This document shows, piece by piece, positions 18,622-28,782 of a stretch of DNA of 43,385 bases. The stretch comes from a virus. Under the pieces are notes generated by a model. The model was not told where the DNA came from. It ran no database searches and saw nothing but the letters and a program-made list of their open reading frames with translations. Each line of letters begins with the position of its first letter. Positions within the stretch are counted from its first letter, which is position 1. Made by a program: the position numbers and the translations under genes. The stretch is from UHGV virus genome UHGV-0217911; one strand, 5' to 3'.

Positions 18622-18795
18622 ATGATAGTCAAGTCAGACGCACCAAAGTACCCTTTGCGCATCCCATTAGAGGTTAAGTTAGCAATCGAGAAGTCAGCGA
18701 AAGAAAATGGTCGCTCAATAAATACCGAGATGGTAATGCGGTTGGTGGATAGTTTAAGGCGGGATAGTTCTAAAGGTAATCTAGCAAAAAGTTGA
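18622..18795 (+). CDS. arc: Arc-like ribbon-helix-helix repressor
   Basis: 57 aa; PLRIPLEVKLAIEKSAKENGRSINTEMVMRL matches the Arc RHH pattern, with GGAGG 5 nt upstream of the ATG. Confidence 0.7.
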   Translation: MIVKSDAPKYPLRIPLEVKLAIEKSAKENGRSINTEMVMRLVDSLRRDSSKGNLAKS

Positions 18796-18857
18796 AGCCC
18801 CAACTGCGGTAACAGTCAGGGCTTCGTTATCAACAAATCGGCTTAGGAAATATTGAC

Positions 18858-22199: not shown

Positions 22200-22245
22200 A
22201 TTCGTAATGCGAAGGTCGTAGGTTCGACTCCTATTATCGGCACCA
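22200..22245 (+). repeat. 46-bp copy of the tRNA-Thr (thrW-type) 3' end from anticodon loop to CCA; attR core of the P22-like prophage
   Basis: ATTCGTAATGCGAAGGTCGTAGGTTCGACTCCTATTATCGGCACCA carries the CGT anticodon loop, T-arm and acceptor 3' strand, but the 5' half of the tRNA is absent. Confidence 0.8.
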
Positions 22246-22849
22246 TTAAGAAAATCAATAACTTAGCTTAACTTCTCTAAGAAATTGTATCTTCTGTTAT
22301 CACTTACAAACGCCTATACGTTGTTATGGGCTTTGGTAGTGTAACACGTATGGGCGAGTAGTTCACAGGCTCAACCTCGTAACAAGTTCCTTTGAAGCTG
22401 GAAGACGTGCCACCGTCTCTAAACCTTCTACCAAAACTCTTAGCAAGATGTTCCACACCTGGCGCGGTGTCCAATGATGCTACACGTCGTGAGACGTTGC
22501 AGAGGATAAACAGGCTAAATGATGGGAAGAGTTTTAAGTGCATAGTGGATTAAAGCCCACCTCTTCAAAACCTAACTTGATCGGGAAAGAATCAAGCTCT
22601 AGCACGGTTTCGTCCACCGGAGTACAACGGGTGCCTGATAAGAGAAGAACTGCTAAGACTTCATAGCTTTTGTGAAAAAGCCCTTTTTAGTGGATACGCC
22701 TACGGCGCTTATTTTTTGGTATAACCATCAAAGGCGCTTTATGGCTCCTATTGTCTTGAAAATGTATCTTTACTTGTATTGTGTTTTATGCGTAGCCTTC
22801 CTGTGTAGTATGTAACTTGTTAATTTTCATATGAATACAGAGGCACACG

Positions 22850-23002
22850 ATGAAAAACATTGCAGCTATCAAACGTAATAACCGCAAGATTCACGCTCGT
22901 AAGTTCCTGTCTACGCCAGAAGGAAAAGCCTGGCTAGAGCGTAAACAGCGAGAGAACGAAGAAAGAAAACTCCTTAGTGAGTTGAAATGGCTTAAGGATT
23001 GA
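22850..23002 (+). CDS. Possible small basic protein (50 aa)
   Basis: ATG with GAGG 7 nt upstream; product MKNIAAIKRNNRKIHARKFLSTPEGKAWLERKQRENEERKLLSELKWLKD. Below the ORF-track length cutoff. Confidence 0.3.
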   Translation: MKNIAAIKRNNRKIHARKFLSTPEGKAWLERKQRENEERKLLSELKWLKD

Positions 23003-23567
23003 ATCACCAGTAGGCGCATAACACATCCAGCGATCAAAGATGTGTTTATGCACCTGATAGTGAAATTATTAAAGTCGTTTAGTTAACATCGCCATTGCTT
23101 GAGCAATAATTGCAACAGCGTCCATCTCTTCACTGGAAGCGATGCAAATGCGGTAACTAATAGCCACAACGAATACATCAATAACGAGAAAGTGAATAGT
23201 GTGAAGATGTTTTGAAAGTAAATGCATAACTTCCTCCGGTTTTACGATAGGAAGATTAGAACATGCATTAAATGATGTTACAAGGGTGGTAATTTACCCT
23301 AATAGTCTACTATTCACCTCAATCTACGTCAACCAATATTTGATGTAGATTTAATTTTCTTTTAAAAACAATGTGTTGCAATTTGTTGAATTTTGGGGTT
23401 AGGTTGTTTTTTGAACGTTTTCATCAAGTGTAAAGATACGTTTAGCCTTCATAGTGAGTTCAGTTACTGTCTTTTTCTCTGAAATCGGCGCAGACGTGAT
23501 CAATGTTTAACGCGAAGATCAGCGGCGTCAGGTCCACGCAGCGACAATTCTCAAATATCAGGAGGCA

Positions 23568-24125
23568 TTACGCTTCCTGCTCTTTCTTGATACGTTGCAC
23601 CGTCTGTGTGCTGACACTGAAATCTTTTGCTACGCTCCGAATTGATCCACCATTCGCGAGAGCGGCAACAATTCCCGCTCGATCAATTGCTTTTCCATTA
23701 CCACGTTTTGCTATACGTCCAGCGGCCTTAGCTGCGGCGATCCCCTCACGCTGCCGCTCAAGCATCATTTCACGTTCCATTTGTGCCACTGCTGCAAGCA
23801 CTGTGAGCATCATATTCCCTGCGGGAGAGTTCTTCCCTGTCTTAAAGTCTTCTTTATGGAAATGCACAGACACGCCGCGCTCTGTTAATTGCTCAACCGT
23901 TGCCAGTAGGTCGGCTGTATTACGGCAAAGTCGATCAATGCTGTGAACATGCAAAACATCACCTTCACGCACATAGTTCATCATTGCCTCAAACTGTGGG
24001 CGCTGGGTATTCTTGCCTGACGCTTTATCTTCAAAGACTTTATCAAGAGTTACTCCAGCTAATTGACGGTCTGTGTTTTGTTGGACAGTCGATACCCTAA
24101 TGTATCCAATATTAGCCATTTTCAT
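23568..24125 (-). CDS. Serine recombinase (resolvase/invertase family)
   Basis: 185 aa; N-terminal catalytic domain IGYIRVSTVQQNTDRQ with the active-site serine, and a C-terminal HTH (GGSIRSVAKDFSVSTQTVQRI). Confidence 0.85.
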   Translation of the reverse strand: MKMANIGYIRVSTVQQNTDRQLAGVTLDKVFEDKASGKNTQRPQFEAMMNYVREGDVLHVHSIDRLCRNTADLLATVEQLTERGVSVHFHKEDFKTGKNSPAGNMMLTVLAAVAQMEREMMLERQREGIAAAKAAGRIAKRGNGKAIDRAGIVAALANGGSIRSVAKDFSVSTQTVQRIKKEQEA

Positions 24126-24644
24126 TTTCCTTCTGTGTTGATTTGTGTGTAGTGATTATTGATCGTGTTGATTAGGTGTGTAAAGGACTTTTTTCACTAC
24201 GAAATTCGAAGGTTTTTAGTGTGGTGATTTAGCCTGCTTTATCACTACACGTCTTGCATGAGAATCATGTAGTTACGTTTTGGTAAAATTAGCAAGCTAT
24301 TAAATAGTGTGTTTATTTTGAAAAAATAATTTTTTGTTGCATTAAAGAAACTTGTTCGACAAATGATAGAACGTTTATTGAGCAACAATTTTGCAGTGAT
24401 GCGCTATATGCCGCATTACACAAGGCACAGCGAAAGTGATGTAAAAGTGAAGAAAGCTAACATTGCACTTTTAAGCTACTTTTCATTGAATTTTTACGTA
24501 GGAATTACACAGGGATTAATCATCAATTACATTGAATTTAAGCCTGTTTTAGATGTTTAATTTTGGTAGCAAGAAACACTTTTAGAAGATCATTGCACAG
24601 ATGTTATGTGATAAATGGATGTAACGGTAGGTCACTGTGAACTA

Positions 24645-24780
24645 CCCCCACAGAATTCTGTTATCCTTAACTTTTAAAGAAATATGCACCCTAACAGAAA
24701 ACTGTTACCCCAACCCTAACAGAATTATGTTAGACACCCCCACAGAAAACTGTTAGCCACCCCTACAGAATTTTGTTACC
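24645..24780. repeat. Five iterons (1 + 4 tandem, about 22-23 bp period), each containing the dyad AACAG-N4-CTGTT
   Basis: ACAGAA cores at 24650, 24694, 24719, 24742 and 24765; consensus CCCYWACAGAAWWYTGTTA, followed by an AT-rich stretch. Confidence 0.7.
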
Positions 24781-25742
24781 TATTAGATCAACTATCAAAC
24801 TACAATTAAATTATCTTTTATAAATTCTTTTATCTTTAAAGAATAATTAAGGGATACCCGTTAGGGAGTCTTCGACTATCCCTTAATCTATTGGCATTCG
24901 CCAGAACCTTGCACAAGTTAGAGTGTTAGTCGTTAGACTGCTTGTCATAACACATAGTTTTTTGTTTGTTGATGTTAGTTAGTAGATCTATGTTCGCTAA
25001 TGCCGCTCACAACGAATATGTAATCTACTATGTGCAAATAGCCTACGGCTTGCGTAAGGCTAAATAGTCTTGCGCTGTGCGCAGAACGATAATTAACTAA
25101 CTACCATCTAACGATTGAAATTTACTTGTGCAATAACCTGAGCGTAAGCGAATGGTTGTTAGTGTCTATGCGCTGTGCGCTTCAATAGTTCCATTGATGA
25201 GGCTTACGCCAATCTAACGATCATCAATCTATTTAAGAGAAAATCTATTGTGCAATACTCTGACGAGTGCAATAACCTTGTGTGCTACGCGTTAGCGATG
25301 TTAGCACACAGACAACAACCAACAACAAACAAAAAAGAAAGAATGGTTTTAGTAGTTGAAGGTTAAATAAGTTTCTACCGCTTAAATCAAGCCGTAGGCG
25401 AGCTAAACGTATATAAGGTAGGGAAACACTTAGCGGTAATAGATTAGCTCGTTATAGAGCTTCTGAGAGCTTTGCAGGTATTTTATAAGGTGTTTGAAAT
25501 CAGAGTTTATCTATCATCATCTTTCCATCATCTAACAAATACAAAATAAGCCCCTTAAACAAGCCTCTGACGAGATAAATAGCCTCTACATAAGGGAATG
25601 TCTTGTTTTTATCAAAACCTCGTCAGAATGCGATTGAGAGCGTTTTAGACAATAGTGGAGAATTGTACCAGATAAGATAGCACAAAAAGATAAGAAAAAT
25701 TATAAGAAATTGAAAAAGATCGTATTTTTTATGAAAGGGGGG

Positions 25743-25771
25743 TTGACAAAAGCCTCCATATGTAGTAAAGT
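25743..25771 (+). promoter_or_regulatory. Sigma70-like promoter candidate (TTGACA-17 bp-TAAAGT) for the downstream four-gene module
   Basis: Consensus -35 TTGACA with 17-bp spacing to a TAnnnT -10, about 120 bp upstream of the first ORF. Confidence 0.35.
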
Positions 25772-25891
25772 AAATGTGAGGGGTAAGAAAAGCATCTCCC
25801 CCATCTAAATAATCAAATCACAATACACTGCACTTTGAGCCGTCAGGCTGCAAGGTGTGTTTTTCTTTTATTTGAATAAGGAATTACAAAA

Positions 25892-26074
25892 ATGAAATGG
25901 TTTACACCAAATGACATTGTTTCTGCGTATCTCGCTGGTGAGATGACCCGCTACCAGGTTCGCCAGAATCGTAATACAGCCCGTCGCCGTGGCTACCCAG
26001 AGCGTGAAAAATGCTTTGACGACGCACTAAAAATTATTGATGAACTGCGTAAGGCAGAAGCAGAGAAAGAATAA
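25892..26074 (+). CDS. Small hypothetical protein (60 aa)
   Basis: ORF with AAGGAA 8 nt upstream; first gene of a tightly packed module. Confidence 0.45.
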   Translation: MKWFTPNDIVSAYLAGEMTRYQVRQNRNTARRRGYPEREKCFDDALKIIDELRKAEAEKE

Positions 26075-26095
26075 TAACAGGAGAAGGAGAAAACT

Positions 26096-26266
26096 ATGAG
26101 CGAAACTACAGAAAAGAAAAGACAACCACGCACTTGCTTTCATATTCCTGATGAAGTATTTCAGGTGTTGTTTAAAGAAGCCAGAAGTAAACGTATCACT
26201 GTTACAGATTACATTCTTGATATGTTGAAAAGAGAGGCTGAAACACTCTCAAACAAAAGCAAGTGA
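26096..26266 (+). CDS. Small ribbon-helix-helix-like DNA-binding protein (56 aa)
   Basis: GGAGAAGGAG SD; product MSETTEKKRQPRTCFHIPDEVFQVLFKEARSKRITVTDYILDMLKREAE has a beta-strand/helix/helix arrangement typical of CopG/Arc-type RHH proteins. Below the track cutoff. Confidence 0.5.
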   Translation: MSETTEKKRQPRTCFHIPDEVFQVLFKEARSKRITVTDYILDMLKREAETLSNKSK

Positions 26267-26319
26267 TTTTTATCACCATAGTAGCGCCGTAGAGCGTGAT
26301 TACATCAAGGAGATTTTTA

Positions 26320-26880
26320 ATGATTAATGAAGAACAATTTGTAAAAGTTCCTATGTGGATTCTAAAAATAAGCCAAGTAAACGGGCATAAATTTACAGAT
26401 AGTGCTAAAAACCTTTACTGCTATTTGAGAGGGTTTGATCGTGCATTTCCCTCTTACGCTAAGATAGGCGATGTTTTTGGCATAACACCAAGAGCAGCAG
26501 AAGAAAGGGTTAAGAAATTGCTCGAAATGGGATTAATTATAAAAGATGCACGACCAGGAAGCTCTAACCTTTATCGAGTGCTTGATATTCCAAAAGGAGA
26601 ATCATCACTACCTGATCCTTCTGAGAAAGAAAACGAATCTAATGAAATATTGAATGTTTCAGAAATCATCGTTGAAGAAGAAATACAGGAATCAGAGTTC
26701 CCTGAGCGGCCCGAAATTTTTACTTGGCTTCTTTCCCTTGATAAGAAGAAACCACCGCACGAAGAAACAGAAGACTACGAAGCATTAGAGCGTTATCGTG
26801 ATGAAGTGCTGACGCTCAAGACACCTTTTAACATCGTATTGAATATGATTAATGATGCATTACAAGGAGAAGCCGCATAA
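26320..26880 (+). CDS. Winged-HTH protein resembling phage/plasmid replication initiator N-terminal domains
   Basis: AAGGAG SD before the ATG at 26320. N-terminal NLYCYLRGFDRAFPSYAKIGDVFGITPRAAEERVKKLLEMGLI is a wHTH pattern seen in Rep/replisome-organizer proteins; the C-terminus is acidic. Confidence 0.55.
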   Translation: MINEEQFVKVPMWILKISQVNGHKFTDSAKNLYCYLRGFDRAFPSYAKIGDVFGITPRAAEERVKKLLEMGLIIKDARPGSSNLYRVLDIPKGESSLPDPSEKENESNEILNVSEIIVEEEIQESEFPERPEIFTWLLSLDKKKPPHEETEDYEALERYRDEVLTLKTPFNIVLNMINDALQGEAA

Positions 26881-27188
26881 TGGAAGAAGATATTAGCAAT
26901 GCAATGGAACAACTTTTAGATCTGACTATCTCACTACAAACAAGAATAAATCAAGCCTATTCAGATTTATGCGATTACACGCTCTCTCAATGCGTTATTA
27001 GCTTAATGAAGGTGAATGTAAGCCTTGACGATTTTATCTCTCTGGTGAGCGATTTAGAGCTAATTGAGGACGATGCCAAGATGTGCACTCAAACCATCAC
27101 AGACACCGCCAGCACGTTAAAGGCTGCAAGTGAAGAGATTCAGCAATTAGTAGATGATTTAGCAAAAAGTGCTATTTTCTCTAAATGA
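26880..27188 (+). CDS. Acidic hypothetical protein (102 aa)
   Basis: ORF with start overlapping the upstream stop (translational coupling). Confidence 0.5.
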   Translation: MEEDISNAMEQLLDLTISLQTRINQAYSDLCDYTLSQCVISLMKVNVSLDDFISLVSDLELIEDDAKMCTQTITDTASTLKAASEEIQQLVDDLAKSAIFSK

Positions 27189-27460
27189 TAATGAAAATTA
27201 TTTGCATTTATAACGATTTCATTATATAATAATATTAGGGGTAGATAAAAAGGTTTTGACTGGTGTTAATCCTTCTACTGTCATAAATCCCTGCATATGG
27301 AAGGTGATAGCCTCAAAGGTTGAGTGGCATTAACCTCTAACAAATATTACCTTCCATCCCCTCAAGAAGTTTTAGAATAATCATAACTCCCTCTTTGATT
27401 GTTGATTGTTTCTACGTTGTGTTGATGAATGTTGTTAGGCATTGTGCTTAATTTTGATAA

Positions 27461-27508
27461 AAGCGGGTAGGTGTTATCTCCTTGCCCTTCCCGCTTTTAT
27501 TTTTCATC
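27461..27508 (+). terminator. Terminator-like hairpin plus T-run
   Basis: AAAAGCGGG ... CCCGCTTTT stem with TATTTTT tail. Confidence 0.4.
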
Positions 27509-28182
27509 TATGCTTATCCTAAAGCTCCTTATTTTGTCCGAAAACATTAAAGAGCCTTACACTGATAGTTATATTTTATAACTATTTACTAACATCATTA
27601 AACTCTTATTTAATGACGGAAGTTAGTAACAGAATAATCTATTAAGTTGTTGTCAAAAACAATCATCTGCATAGCGTTAGCCGCAAGCAGAGAGAGTTTA
27701 GCTAAGAATTGTGCAATAACCTTTGGAAATATTGATAGCAAAACGGGTTTTATAGACTGCAAATCTATAATCTTTGGTTGTAAAAACGCTTTTTCTGAAA
27801 CGGTAGATTATTGTTGGTGTAGTTAATCCTATTAAAATTTAATCTGTGAGTAGATGAGAATTGGAATAGTGATTCCTTAAAGCCTTACTTTGTTGCATCC
27901 ACAGCAAAAACAGGCAGCGGTTAGCCACCGCATCCAGAATATCAGATCTTAGTGATTCCAGGGGCAACTCCTAAGAGCCTTCCTTCTAAGATCTGATATT
28001 CATCCTTTAAGCATATCATCAAGTATATTTAAAAAGTGTATTTGCTGATATGTTTAATCCTCTTATAGTTTAACTTATCAATTATGTAATTGCCCGCACG
28101 TTAAAGCCCCTTTGCTGGTCAGAATTAACCTCTTACGGCATTGGGGCTTTTTATTTGTCTGGCACTAACAGGAACGTTATTT

Positions 28183-28380
28183 ATGAAACAAGAAATGATT
28201 ATCAGCAAAGACGGGGAAACGATGATTGTTAGTGATGAAAACCTCATTAAGGTTGCCGCACTGTTGGGAGTTACTCCCGAAAGTCTTCGTTCTACCACTG
28301 CCCAATTATTTAAATCGGCTGATGCGGTTAGTCTTGCTGATGCCCTTAAATCTAAAATTAAACAACTGAAAGGAAAATAA
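28183..28380 (+). CDS. Small hypothetical protein (65 aa), first gene of a six-gene operon
   Basis: ATG at 28183 with AGGA upstream; the track ORF start at 28141 lies inside an upstream hairpin. Confidence 0.5.
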   Translation: MKQEMIISKDGETMIVSDENLIKVAALLGVTPESLRSTTAQLFKSADAVSLADALKSKIKQLKGK

Positions 28381-28384
28381 TCTT

Positions 28385-28768
28385 ATGGCTAACCCATATG
28401 GAAAATTAAAAGCAGTGAATGCGGATAATTCCCGTTCACGCTGTAAGGTAGTAGCTTACGCTGCTGATCCAGTGCTGCAAGATCGCCTCGTCAAACTGGC
28501 TTCACCTCTCACTGACGATCTTATTGTCGGGGCTTTGCTGAAAGCCGATGGCACCAAAGCAACAACTGCATCTGATATTGCTCACGTAGTAGTTGAACCG
28601 GCTTATGAAGGACAGGAAAGCGTAGTGGTTGCACATCCTACTTTCGTTATTCTGGCTGAAGATGGGATTGAATTTAACAGCATGGAAAAGGCAAGTGTTA
28701 TTGCAAAACTGCAATCTCTCGGCTTTGTAATTGCTGGTTATGAAGAACTTGCGATCCCTACGACTTAA
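28385..28768 (+). CDS. Hypothetical protein (127 aa)
   Basis: Tightly packed behind the preceding gene (4-bp gap); no motif recognized. Confidence 0.6.
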   Translation: MANPYGKLKAVNADNSRSRCKVVAYAADPVLQDRLVKLASPLTDDLIVGALLKADGTKATTASDIAHVVVEPAYEGQESVVVAHPTFVILAEDGIEFNSMEKASVIAKLQSLGFVIAGYEELAIPTT

Positions 28769-28782
28769 CAAGGAAAATAATA

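Follow-up and report, generated by a model that had tools for sequence, protein, structure and literature searches.

A duplicated, hairpin-rich non-coding region beside the replication origin of a capsid-gene-carrying island of Escherichia coli

The window analysed here is the whole 43,385-nucleotide stretch of the virus genome UHGV-0217911. It contains a 12.1-kb E. coli island that carries a capsid gene and is integrated at thrW, and the repeat region is located inside this island. The att repeats at the island ends are 26 nt long, share 92% identity and are separated by 12,099 bp. In the carrier strain D8, NZ_CP010151, the position of attL holds an intact tRNA-Thr. The features of the locus, in window coordinates, are as follows.

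22222–22247, plus strand: attL, the 3′ end of tRNA-Thr thrW, a 26-nt direct repeat with 34321–34346
23568–24125, minus strand: serine recombinase, Hin-like invertase/resolvase (PF00239, E = 1e-38; phrog_125, DNA invertase)
24643–24781, plus strand: five iterons (CCCnACAGAAnnnTGTTA), direct repeats mostly 23 bp apart
24782–24850, no strand assigned: A+T-rich tract by composition (85.5% A+T) with a GATC site, the presumed unwinding element
24850–24883, plus strand: hairpin H1 (from folding), outer stem AGGGAT/ATCCCT around CCC-GTTA-GGG and AGTC-TTC-GACT
24894–24945, minus strand: left arm of a long imperfect inverted repeat (pairs I4 and I5), containing the inverted motif copy CTTGTGCAAGG in the minus-strand reading
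25003–25009, plus strand: CCGCTCA block, conserved across genera, about 70–130 nt upstream of GCGCTGTGCGC
25069–25166, plus strand: repeat unit A, with the palindrome TGCGC-TGT-GCGCA (25071–25083), ATCTAACGAT, TTGTGCAATAACCT (25126–25139) and a hairpin AATAACC...GGTTGTT
25167–25290, plus strand: repeat unit B, with TGCGCTGTGCGC, ATCTAACGAT, ATTGTGCAATA (25247–25257) and GTGCAATAACCTT (25267–25279)
25280–25309, plus strand: hairpin GTGTGCTA-CGC-GTTA-GCG-ATGT-TAGCACAC (from folding)
25310–25340, plus strand: C/A-rich, G-poor tract, complementary to the T/G-rich 24958–24980
25378–25585, plus strand: second repeat pair, ACCGCTTAAATCAAGCCGTAGGCGAGCTAAAC and GCCCCTTAAACAAGCCTCTGACGAGATAAAT, with the intervening sequence deleted in four alleles
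25679–25686, minus strand: inverted motif copy TAGCACAA, whose AGCAC core is kept in every genus
25743–25771, plus strand: sigma-70 type promoter (TTGACA, 17 nt, TAAAGT) of the early operon, from the promoter scan
25776–25872, plus strand: leader with a covarying hairpin followed by an intrinsic terminator (stem 25830–25857 and U-tract) just before the first ORF
25892–26880, plus strand: early operon, encoding p60 (25892–26074), a 56-aa RHH protein (26096–26266) and an O-like replication initiator (26296–26880)
27709–27722, plus strand: fourth copy of TTGTGCAATAACCT, an exact 14-mer, in a second conserved non-coding region
34321–34346, plus strand: attR of the 12.1-kb island, a direct repeat with attL

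The island genes include those for a lambda E-type capsid protein and tail-like genes, and there is no terminase among them. Neither a primase nor a helicase was recognised in the island ORFs with Pfam and PHROGs, nor does the island encode a recognisable P-like helicase loader. The island is carried by 352–564 of 5,426 complete E. coli genomes, about 6–10%, and its relatives occur in Klebsiella, Raoultella, and Leclercia. A scan of the genome collection with a 29-mer returned E. coli only, plus one probably mis-binned MAG. The capsid protein matched, among viral contigs, only provirus calls from isolate genomes, which therefore provide no evidence of packaging. Two records of the plasmid collection gave a match: one is chromosome-sized (4.9 Mb), and the other covers the right half only. 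Searches of the literature for thrW satellites, for new satellite families, and for the exact motif strings returned no description of the island or of the region.

The repeat region is flanked by the iterons with their A+T-rich tract on one side and by the conserved p60/RHH/Rep operon promoter on the other. The iteron copies are 23–24 nt long, with spacings of 44, 25, 23, and 23 bp, and are dyad-symmetric (TAACAG-N4-CTGTTA). Three unrelated types of iteron were seen at this position in other alleles, and the A+T-rich tract is conserved beside all iteron types. Between alleles, only the iteron segment and the 5′ part of rep fail to align. The initiator matches O-like/HTH_36 replication initiator families. 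The locus is an iteron-type origin: it has five direct repeats at about helical-turn multiples, an adjacent A+T-rich tract, and an initiator that changes together with the iterons. Although the flanking iterons and rep are unrelated, positions 24794–25082 retain 87–96% identity in the compared alleles. The p60 protein is conserved family-wide and contains an invariant Arg-rich segment. It folds as a three-helix bundle for which the PDB offers no meaningful match; at the sequence level PDB, Pfam, and PHROGs returned nothing, and a DNA-binding fold was not detected. Every intact family member has the promoter word TTGACAAA, and the leader downstream of the promoter folds with an energy of −28.1 kcal/mol (z −2.65).

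A preliminary description of the sequence had pointed to a repeat-rich non-coding region with a recurring motif, and the counts bear this out. The motif GTGCAATAAC occurs exactly at 25128, 25267, and 27711, three times against 0.18 expected, a number reached by 1 of 100 shuffles. These are the copies previously placed near 25127, 25267, and 27709, whereas the one reported near 25248 reads ATTGTGCAATACT and departs from the proposed pattern in its last base. Longer exact words are shared by 25126 and 27709 (TTGTGCAATAACCT) and by 25267 and 27711 (GTGCAATAACCTT), and the fourth TTGTGCAATAACCT copy is located upstream of the second operon. The degenerate word YGTGCWA has 28 copies in the window, seven of them within 890 bp, or 2% of the window length, and across the family it is strand-biased (183 plus, 48 minus). 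A motif common to both non-coding regions was found in E. coli only; a candidate 10-mer in Klebsiella was rejected as a coincidence inside a hairpin. A cluster of DnaA boxes was also rejected, as one-mismatch matches to TTWTNCACA number 88 in the window against 107 expected. The motif read on the other strand, TATTGCACA, is one mismatch from TTWTNCACA, and its Klebsiella variants are two mismatches away.

The imperfect duplication of about 110 bp and its two anchors in the same order are likewise confirmed. GCGCTGTGCGC and ATCTAACGAT are each present twice, in the same order in both units, with TGCGCTGTGCGC at 25071–25082 and 25169–25180 and ATCTAACGAT at 25106–25115 and 25212–25221. The collinear anchors are spaced by 98, 106, and 122 bp, corresponding to a unit of about 100–120 bp with indels. 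Global alignment of units A and B gives 76 identities over 92 aligned positions (130 alignment columns) and a score of 37, compared with −13.8 ± 8.5 for shuffled sequences, and 0 of 500 shuffles scored as well. Tandem Repeats Finder made no call for 25069–25290; the units are degenerate and do not reach head-to-tail identity of at least 70%. Unit B also contains the right arm of the long inverted repeat (25205–25270).

About two-thirds of the sampled E. coli alleles contain one repeat unit only, and most lack unit A. Since the crossover junctions of the single-unit alleles differ, units A and B are true homologues and the duplication is a copy-number polymorphism. Judged from these alleles, the extra module is a dispensable copy-number variant and not a required feature. 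Klebsiella has its own duplication of a unit of about 115 bp. All 15 distinct aligned E. coli alleles are collinear, and alleles without any recombinase still carry the region.

The region is rich in sequences that can form hairpins. In allele L003, H1 is a perfect 15-bp palindrome. The hairpin at 25280–25309 is replaced in other alleles by GCGTTA-CCCC-TTT-GGGG-ATGC-TAACGC, which has the same shape and a different sequence, and the segment 25244–25312 folds with −22.9 kcal/mol (z −2.8). In an alignment of the three-way hairpin module, 94.5% of the cells are paired, compared with 30–43% in slid controls; both sides have changed in 8 of 15 pairs, and among about 146 stem cells of the covarying stems there are no one-sided or G-U changes. 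More than 20 variants of the module have all stems Watson-Crick paired, and their loops are not conserved (GTGA, GTTA, GAAT, TGAAA). Runs of palindromes with 6-bp stems and 3-nt loops have been exchanged wholesale between lineages. Such compensatory change is equally expected for DNA hairpins and for structured RNA.

Pairing also extends over longer distances. The inverted repeat I1, formed by 25310–25340 and 24958–24980, is 23 nt long and 87% complementary. In single-unit alleles such as L016, the inverted-repeat arms are 34 nt long, 88% complementary, and 229 nt apart. The long inverted repeat displays no compensatory change in E. coli: its right arm has drifted to 18 of 23 in the window, and its left arm is invariant. 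RNA folding is better than that of shuffled sequences on both strands (z −3.4 plus, −4.8 minus), indicating that folding selects neither the strand nor the molecule. Attempts to choose the strand from minimum free energies or from counts of G-T versus A-C mismatches were uninformative because of base composition and a confounding AT microsatellite.

The region is not annotated in RefSeq. A GTG-start ORF of 63 aa (25175–25366) overlaps it; alleles delete its sequence or alter it by indels of 2, 4, 6, and 7 nt, and it is therefore not conserved coding sequence, in line with the earlier statement that no ORF accounts for the repeats. Rfam 15, searched at the gathering threshold and at E ≤ 5, has no match in 24100–28400 at the gathering threshold, and only chance-level hits to snoRNA and sraA (E 0.02–4) otherwise. 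In the family alignments of E. coli and Klebsiella, the region is not bracketed by a conserved promoter at its left edge or a terminator at its right edge; the promoter scan places the 25743 promoter only downstream of it. The pattern TTGCGCTGTGCGCRNRAYG was found among viral contigs in E. coli islands only, plus chance matches in GC-rich coding DNA.

The key motifs are conserved in related islands and in other genera, the opposite of what the preliminary description had named as grounds for abandoning its reading. The order of iterons, A+T-rich tract, structured region, TTGACAAA promoter, and p60 is constant in Klebsiella, Raoultella, and Leclercia. Of 82 distinct sequences, 71 contain GCGCTGTGCGC, and its 13-bp palindrome is almost invariant. 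Sequence blocks and hairpin shapes persist across genera in which the protein of the neighbouring gene has about 60–70% identity. Other alleles have small tyrosine recombinases or different genes in place of the serine recombinase. The region thus persists through exchanges of the iterons, the initiator, the small regulator, and the neighbouring recombinase, which implies that something in it is needed in cis by the whole family.

The earlier proposal was either a cluster of regulator binding sites or a structured RNA. Compensatory hairpins fit a structured element, and the strand-biased motifs and conserved palindrome fit binding sites; the origin context had been missed, and there is no sign that an RNA is made. 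The reading that we prefer, tentatively, is that of modular, hairpin-forming, cis-acting DNA attached to the replication origin of an integrative, satellite-like island, with the hairpins forming when the origin opens. In its favour are the position beside the iterons and the A+T-rich tract, the constant order of elements across genera, the compensatory change in the hairpins, the strand bias and enrichment of YGTGCWA, the modular build, and the precedent of the RSF1010 oriV. The modules each combine a short perfect palindrome or a three-way hairpin with a YGTGCWA word; one is duplicated here and single in most strains. Binding of the O-like initiator to the iterons would open the A+T-rich tract, and the motif-carrying strand would become single-stranded. 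The palindromes could then fold into hairpins that expose or rebuild the TGCGC-TGT-GCGCA and GTGCWA sites. By analogy with the ssi sites of plasmid origins, the exposed sites may provide start or assembly signals for DNA synthesis, with a host factor, or else a conserved factor of the island such as p60, possibly recognising them. Gain and loss of modules by unequal crossing-over would alter the dose and not the function. From the missing G-U and one-sided changes, the lack of an Rfam match, and the lack of a promoter or terminator at the edges, we infer DNA rather than RNA. Several observations count against the ssi-like DNA reading: the island has no recognisable primase or helicase, no sequence similarity to a known ssi site was found, and the region spans about 500–900 bp, whereas known ssi signals are 40–140 nt long. 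The lack of compensatory change in the E. coli long inverted repeat and the better-than-shuffled folding of both strands as RNA also count against this reading.

For the inverted AGCAC copy, which in all genera precedes the −35 hexamer by about 55 bp, a transcription-factor site is at least as good an interpretation. This copy belongs to a possible though less probable explanation, in which a conserved protein, p60 or a host factor, binds YGTGCWA and the palindrome TGCGC-TGT-GCGCA in double-stranded DNA and controls the 25743 promoter, or origin firing, copy number, or partition, as in the RHH and handcuffing arrays of plasmids. The cross-genus conservation and local enrichment of YGTGCWA, the palindrome in 71 of 82 sequences, the exact 14-mer upstream of the second operon, and the family-wide p60 with its invariant Arg-rich segment are all consistent with such an array. 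The neighbouring RHH protein was rejected as the binder because at least three unrelated types of small protein accompany the same motif sets. That p60 lacks a detectable DNA-binding fold, and that no motif is common to the two non-coding regions of Klebsiella elements, also speak against the array. The inverted halves are spaced variably, by about 24 to 31 nt, and the covarying inner stems have no conserved sequence, which argues for hairpins rather than dimer sites. The repeats could alternatively be modules of a structured non-coding RNA transcribed from the plus strand, such as a long leader, a protein sponge, or an immunity RNA like P4 CI. We consider this rather unlikely, although the covarying stems and the folding scores would suit it, some plus-strand loops are GNRA-like (GTGA, GTAA), a few G-T wobbles are compatible with the plus strand only (GTTC-TGGC-GAAT in L016, TAGCGC in L017), and the plus strand carries the C/A-rich, G-poor linkers. 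RNA-level control also appears elsewhere in the island, in the leader hairpin and terminator and in a promoter–terminator pair of the second non-coding region. Against an RNA stand the Rfam result, even at E ≤ 5, the missing edge signals in both E. coli and Klebsiella, loops that are not conserved above stems free of one-sided and G-U changes, and the 3-nt loops of most stems, which are unusual for functional RNA. A broader view, that the region is a recognition platform of undescribed capsid-gene-carrying satellites of about 12 kb in Enterobacteriaceae, is unlikely in our judgement; it would be a DNA signal for packaging or helper sensing, or a long structured RNA, whose modules are read by the Arg-rich p60 and whose copy number tunes induction, replication, or transfer.

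It is improbable that the region is a pac- or cos-like site for loading island DNA into capsids, with the modules as terminase-binding sites. The island has capsid and tail-like genes and no terminase, so that the terminase would have to be borrowed; the repeated sites in the same orientation, with the symmetric core TGCGC-TGT-GCGCA, resemble the arrangement of cosB/cosN. However, neither the repeat region nor the second non-coding region has similarity in a collection of 50,697 phage records, where no known cos or pac site was matched. An exact 20-mer shared by T5-like phages and the 45-nt GCGCTGTGCGC consensus was dismissed as chance, being located in a tRNA cluster, without the palindrome, at E 0.2. 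Moreover, E. coli and Klebsiella have the same core, whereas sites specific for a helper would be expected to differ; the usual place of packaging sites is next to the head genes, where the other non-coding region is found here; and a pair of cos cores separated by 98 bp would be awkward. Functionless spacer in which slippage or unequal crossing-over has left neutral debris is a still more improbable account. The freely varying copy number and the dispensable extra unit would agree with it, but not the 87–96% identity beside unrelated iterons and rep or the blocks and hairpin shapes that persist across genera at about 60–70% identity of the neighbouring protein. An invertible switch on which the neighbouring invertase acts, or an insertion of MITE type with the 23–34-bp inverted repeats at its ends, is the least credible and very unlikely to be correct. 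About 0.8 kb away there is a Hin-like serine invertase, in place of which relatives have FimB-sized tyrosine recombinases, and inverted repeats of 23–34 nt flank 229–333 bp, but chimeric inverted-junction queries for both repeat pairs, with a match required over at least 80% of their length, found the inverted junction in 0 of 352 carrier genomes; the median of two places per genome represents the two halves of the chimeric query. The 15 distinct E. coli alleles are collinear, and alleles lacking a recombinase keep the region. The arms occur inside islands only, with no outside copies, and have therefore not spread like a MITE.

The longest non-coding region of the island has remained unannotated, although about 6–10% of complete E. 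coli genomes carry the island. Should it be an origin-activation or priming zone, this would account for the start of DNA synthesis in a minimal replicon that has only an O-like initiator, and would offer a handle for mini-replicon and satellite–helper experiments. If the region is instead an RNA or serves in packaging, satellite biology would gain a new element. Because of the copy-number and deletion polymorphisms, assemblies and typing schemes may err at this region.

The oriV of RSF1010 (IncQ) contains two hairpin ssi sites on opposite strands, which are exposed when the initiator-bound origin is unwound; the two copies form an inverted repeat, and primers are begun at a GTG that immediately follows the hairpin on its 3′ side (PMC8567376). 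Like the oriV with ssiA and ssiB, the island has iterons, an A+T-rich tract, and then hairpin-forming sequence, its hairpins are followed by (Y)GTGC words, and E. coli islands also have inverted copies. In contrast, the RSF1010 ssi sites are 40 nt long, one per strand, and depend on the RepB′ primase, whereas the island region is 0.5–0.9 kb long, comprises several modules, and has no sequence similarity to them and no recognisable primase. The G4- and phiX174-type ssi signals of F, R1/R100, R6K, and ColE2 are origin-proximal, strand-specific, hairpin-based DNA signals that host primase or PriA reads. Under the preferred reading the island region would be of a similar kind; the known signals are single units of 55–140 nt. 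The immunity system of the satellite P4, with its CI RNA and seqA-seqB-seqC, resembles the island in having complementary repeats upstream of an early or replication operon and a leader terminator. Unlike for P4 CI RNA, there is no Rfam match to C4/CI-type RNAs, a promoter that transcribes the repeats was not found, and in E. coli no compensatory changes preserve the complementarity. P4 crr and pSC101 par are accessory cis regions, near or partnered with an origin, with direct repeats of about 100–120 bp, and in par also inverted repeats, of variable copy number. The island region would likewise be accessory and cis-acting; it adjoins an origin and contains repeats of about 100–120 bp. However, crr contains the origin octamer bound by the alpha protein, whereas the island motifs are unrelated to the iterons and stay constant when the iterons change. 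The origin of phage lambda combines the O protein, dyad-symmetric iterons, an A+T-rich tract, and a flanking palindrome. The island shares the O-like initiator, the dyad-symmetric iterons, the A+T-rich tract, and the palindromes; whereas the lambda origin is inside the O gene, that of the island is positioned 1.5 kb upstream of rep, with the repeat region in between.

The region at 24900-25400 contains two copies of one unit, 25069-25166 and 25167-25290. The anchor repeats are collinear, with TGCGCTGTGCGC at 25071 and 25169 and ATCTAACGAT at 25106 and 25212, at spacings of 98, 106, and 122 bp. Global alignment of the units gives 76 identities in 92 aligned positions and a score of 37, compared to -13.8 ± 8.5 for shuffled sequences, none of which (0/500) scored as high, and the proposed duplication of about 110 bp with conserved element order is therefore real. 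The unit pair is absent from the Tandem Repeats Finder output. The motif GTGCAATAAC occurs at 25128, 25267, and 27711, three matches against 0.18 expected, a number reached in one of 100 shuffles. The copies reported in the preliminary description at about 25127, 25267, and 27709 are exact; the one near 25248 is ATTGTGCAATACT, one base off the proposed pattern. The shared exact words are longer than reported: TTGTGCAATAACCT is common to 25126 and 27709, and GTGCAATAACCTT to 25267 and 27711. Of the 28 YGTGCWA copies in the window, seven fall within 24850-25740, a stretch that makes up 2% of the window. The region was described as not accounted for by any ORF, and this holds: the stretch of an overlapping 63-aa ORF with a GTG start (25175-25366) contains deletions and frame-breaking indels among alleles, and RefSeq has no annotation over the region. 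The preliminary observation as a whole is confirmed.

The region is physically linked to an iteron origin, on its unwinding side. Adjoined by the origin on the left and by the promoter and early operon on the right, it constitutes the left half of a non-coding block of about 0.9 kb between the following features.

Features flanking the region
24643-24781: five iterons of 24 nt each, mostly 23 bp apart, on the left
24782-24850: A+T tract (85.5% A+T) with a GATC site, on the left
25743-25771: sigma-70 type promoter, on the right
25830-25872: leader hairpin and intrinsic terminator (-28.1 kcal/mol), followed by the first ORF at 25892

The hairpin of the early-operon leader (25776-25872) covaries across alleles and genera, and the terminator is directly 5' of the first ORF. 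This arrangement implies that p60, the first protein of the operon, the 56-aa ribbon-helix-helix (RHH) protein, and the initiator rep may be controlled by attenuation or antitermination. The second conserved non-coding region of the island, which holds the 27709 motif copy, has a promoter rated good (TTTGCA and TATAAT separated by 18 nt, 27201-27230) followed by an intrinsic terminator at 27456-27505 that is strong (z -5.0), from which a non-coding RNA of about 270 nt is predicted; it has no Rfam match. A minus-strand terminator is located at 27931-27914.

The region is conserved and modular. Its 561-bp core is present in 352 of 5,426 complete E. coli genomes, unannotated in all, and a 1.3-kb query matched 564 genomes. 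Among 40 evenly spaced hits, 12 are two-unit alleles (one uninterrupted match to 93% or more of the query), 27 are single-unit or shorter deletion alleles (72-86% in two pieces), and the remaining one covers only 12% of the query. The duplication is thus a dispensable module copy. Alignment of 15 distinct alleles shows several different single-unit junctions, one made by a deletion exactly between the two GCGCTGTGCGC copies and others at ATCTAACGAT or elsewhere, as expected of unequal crossing-over between homologous units. Blocks 24794-25082 (87-96% identity) and 25164-26114 (78-88%) are common to all alleles; no alignment between alleles is obtained for the segment holding the iterons (about 24650-24790) or for the 5' part of rep. 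Other alleles have the unrelated iterons CCTAGGAAATGAGTTCC or GTAACGAnnnGTTACA at the same spot, followed by the same A+T-rich tract. The origin is thereby confirmed as a genuine iteron origin whose specificity can be swapped, and the region is retained whichever specificity is present. The recombinase upstream varies as well, being of the serine or the small tyrosine type or replaced by other genes.

The modules exchanged among these E. coli alleles (24643-24781 and 26096-26600) are the iterons, of three types, the small RHH-type protein, of at least three types, and the 5' portion of rep; p60 and the non-coding block, which lie between these modules, remain unchanged. A second direct-repeat pair of about 32 nt is positioned at 25378-25409 and 25550-25585, and its first copy holds CAAGCCGTAGGC, exactly complementary to GCCTACGGCTTG at 25041-25052. 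This pair follows the pattern of the units: in four alleles (L006, L011, L016, and L018) the 25378 and 25550 blocks are fused and the intervening sequence of about 173 bp is lost. The L018 contig (JAEWTL010000083.1), from a metagenome-assembled genome labelled 'Bacillota bacterium', carries the E. coli island region at 96% identity, and the label is probably a binning error.

Homologues of p60 with 58-78% identity are found in E. albertii, Klebsiella, Raoultella, and Leclercia. Their loci share an order of small tyrosine recombinase, often a Dam methylase, iterons, A+T tract, about 600 bp of non-coding DNA, TTGACAAA promoter, p60, small protein, initiator, and capsid gene. Only the promoter and leader are aligned by BLAST across genera; other blocks recur in order, namely CCGCTCA, a (T/C)GTGC... 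element, TTGCGCTGTGCGC, sometimes CCATCTAACGAT, and several (C/T)GTGC(A/T)A words. With the family set enlarged by 66 metagenome loci, 71 of the 82 distinct upstream regions contain GCGCTGTGCGC. The structured zone of 76 distinct sequences has 183 copies of YGTGCWA on the plus strand versus 48 on the minus strand, and the previously noted TGTGCAATAACC is the E. coli form of this family-wide word. Modular repetition is a family trait: Klebsiella elements have their own unit duplication of about 115 bp, TTGCGCTGTGCGC duplicated 189 bp apart, and a (AATCAATT)n run of variable length. In Klebsiella variicola CP182933 (L023, 4241-4323) this microsatellite has about 10 copies inside the homologous region, and the number differs in L024, L036, and L037. 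About 1-2 kb upstream of p60, in the place of the E. coli serine recombinase, the Klebsiella and Raoultella loci L019-L039 encode a tyrosine recombinase of 186-205 aa and a Dam methylase of phage type (PF05869); GATC is recurrent both within the A+T-rich tract and a short distance 5' of the early promoter.

Hairpin formation in the region is under selection. The Klebsiella-type module (TTGTGCM, hairpin a, hairpin b, KGCACAA) gives a three-way junction-like fold with pairing in 94.5% of cells among ten variants; eight of 15 pairs are changed on both sides and none on one side only, and slid controls pair at 30-43%. In the enlarged set, with more than 20 variants, Watson-Crick stems are kept and loops differ (GTGA, GTTA, GAAT, TGAAA). 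Between this module and GCGCTGTGCGC, each lineage has one to three palindromes with 6-bp stems and 3-nt loops, wholly unlike in sequence (for example TATGCC-TAC-GGCATA, TTACGC-GTT-GCGTAA, and TTCGCC-TTG-GGCGAA).

Comparable hairpin elements of E. coli
24850-24883: three-way-shaped element, a perfect 15-bp palindrome in one allele
25280-25309: hairpin GTGTGCTA-CGC-GTTA-GCG-ATGT-TAGCACAC, swapped in other alleles for GCGTTA-CCCC-TTT-GGGG-ATGC-TAACGC
24894-24945 with 25205-25270: long inverted repeat

In single-unit alleles the long inverted repeat has 34-nt arms that are 88% complementary; in the window it has decayed to 18/23, and its left arm is invariant, without compensation. Folded as RNA, both strands of 24880-25420 are more stable than shuffles (z -3.4 and -4.8).

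The 56-aa neighbour is, according to its structure model (pLDDT 89), an RHH protein. The top PDB fold matches are mostly Arc, CopG, AmrZ, ParG, and RHH antitoxins, with probabilities of about 0.9-0.99 and E-values of only 0.05-0.8 because the protein is small; a PHROG hit, also Arc-like, is weak. Identical motif sets occur with at least three unrelated types of the small RHH protein, which excludes this protein as the reader of the motifs. The p60 model is a confident three-helix bundle (pLDDT 90.6) without an informative structural match; an Arg-rich stretch of the protein (RNTARRRGYP) is invariant.

The sequence of the window is from an E. coli chromosome. Positions 1 to about 22,200 make up the right portion of a P22-like prophage, as indicated by sar RNA (18790-18856) and the ORF reading (probable ant, tailspike). 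The adjacent 12.1-kb island (22248-34320), which in strain D8 directly adjoins tRNA-Thr (thrW), has the following features.

Features of the island
22222-22247 and 34321-34346: 26-nt direct repeat, 12,099 bp apart, bounding the island
23568-24125, minus strand: serine invertase or resolvase
25892-26880: p60, 56-aa protein, and O-like/HTH_36 initiator
343-aa protein: Klebsiella and Leclercia counterparts at the same position match PF03864 (lambda E capsid family)
633-aa protein: matches a "tape measure" PHROG
Dit-like protein: encoded in the island
32906-34270, minus strand: tyrosine integrase

No terminase, portal, or primase gene was found in the island, which resembles a phage satellite of a kind not represented by the four SatelliteFinder families. 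It occurs in 352-564 of the 5,426 E. coli genomes and has relatives in Klebsiella, Raoultella, and Leclercia. As a possible capsid-encoding satellite family, it is a more interesting lead than the repeat region. A 127-aa island gene product is possibly decoration-like. Three mobile elements are in tandem at thrW: the prophage (1-22247), the island (22248-34346), and a vat autotransporter island (34347 to about 41000) with a truncated integrase and vat at 35922-40052. ARAGORN detected no intact tRNA in the window, and a full-length Rfam IS009 match (197 bits) is located outside the island at 42782-42982. Five independent p60-bearing metagenome contigs (L073, L074, L105, L106, and L129) are 12,583-12,773 nt long, approximately the size of the island, and in two of them, from food metagenomes, p60 is equally far from one end. 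Such contigs may represent the island as an excised circle or as a packaged genome.

The region matches no Rfam family, and a collection of 50,697 phage records contains neither it nor the second non-coding region. An invertible switch was rejected, as chimeric inverted-junction queries for both repeat pairs matched 0/352 genomes over 80% of their length; a dispersed MITE was ruled out by genome search, and a DnaA-box cluster was also ruled out.

The signals of the region would act at the DNA level, since the stems lack wobble pairs, the loops are unconserved and as short as 3 nt, and no promoter and terminator bracket them. Tentatively, the preferred reading is that they are ssi-like and would become active once opening of the origin exposes the strand. 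A structured RNA made from the plus strand is improbable on the same grounds, even with GNRA-like loops, C/A-rich linkers, and a few wobbles that fit the plus strand alone in its favor. An array of regulator sites, to which the inverted AGCAC conserved ahead of the early promoter points, is somewhat less doubtful than the RNA and still unlikely, and a packaging signal is very improbable.

No description of the region or, as far as searched, of the island family was found in the literature and databases. Accessory repeated or hairpin DNA beside an iteron origin is of an already known kind; the architecture, sequence motifs, and host element of the region appear to be new. Other plasmids carry host-primase and PriA signals, to which the putative strand-exposed signals can be likened. 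The ssi sites of the RSF1010 oriV (PMC8567376) are similarly comparable to the signals proposed here, which would act once origin opening exposes the strand.
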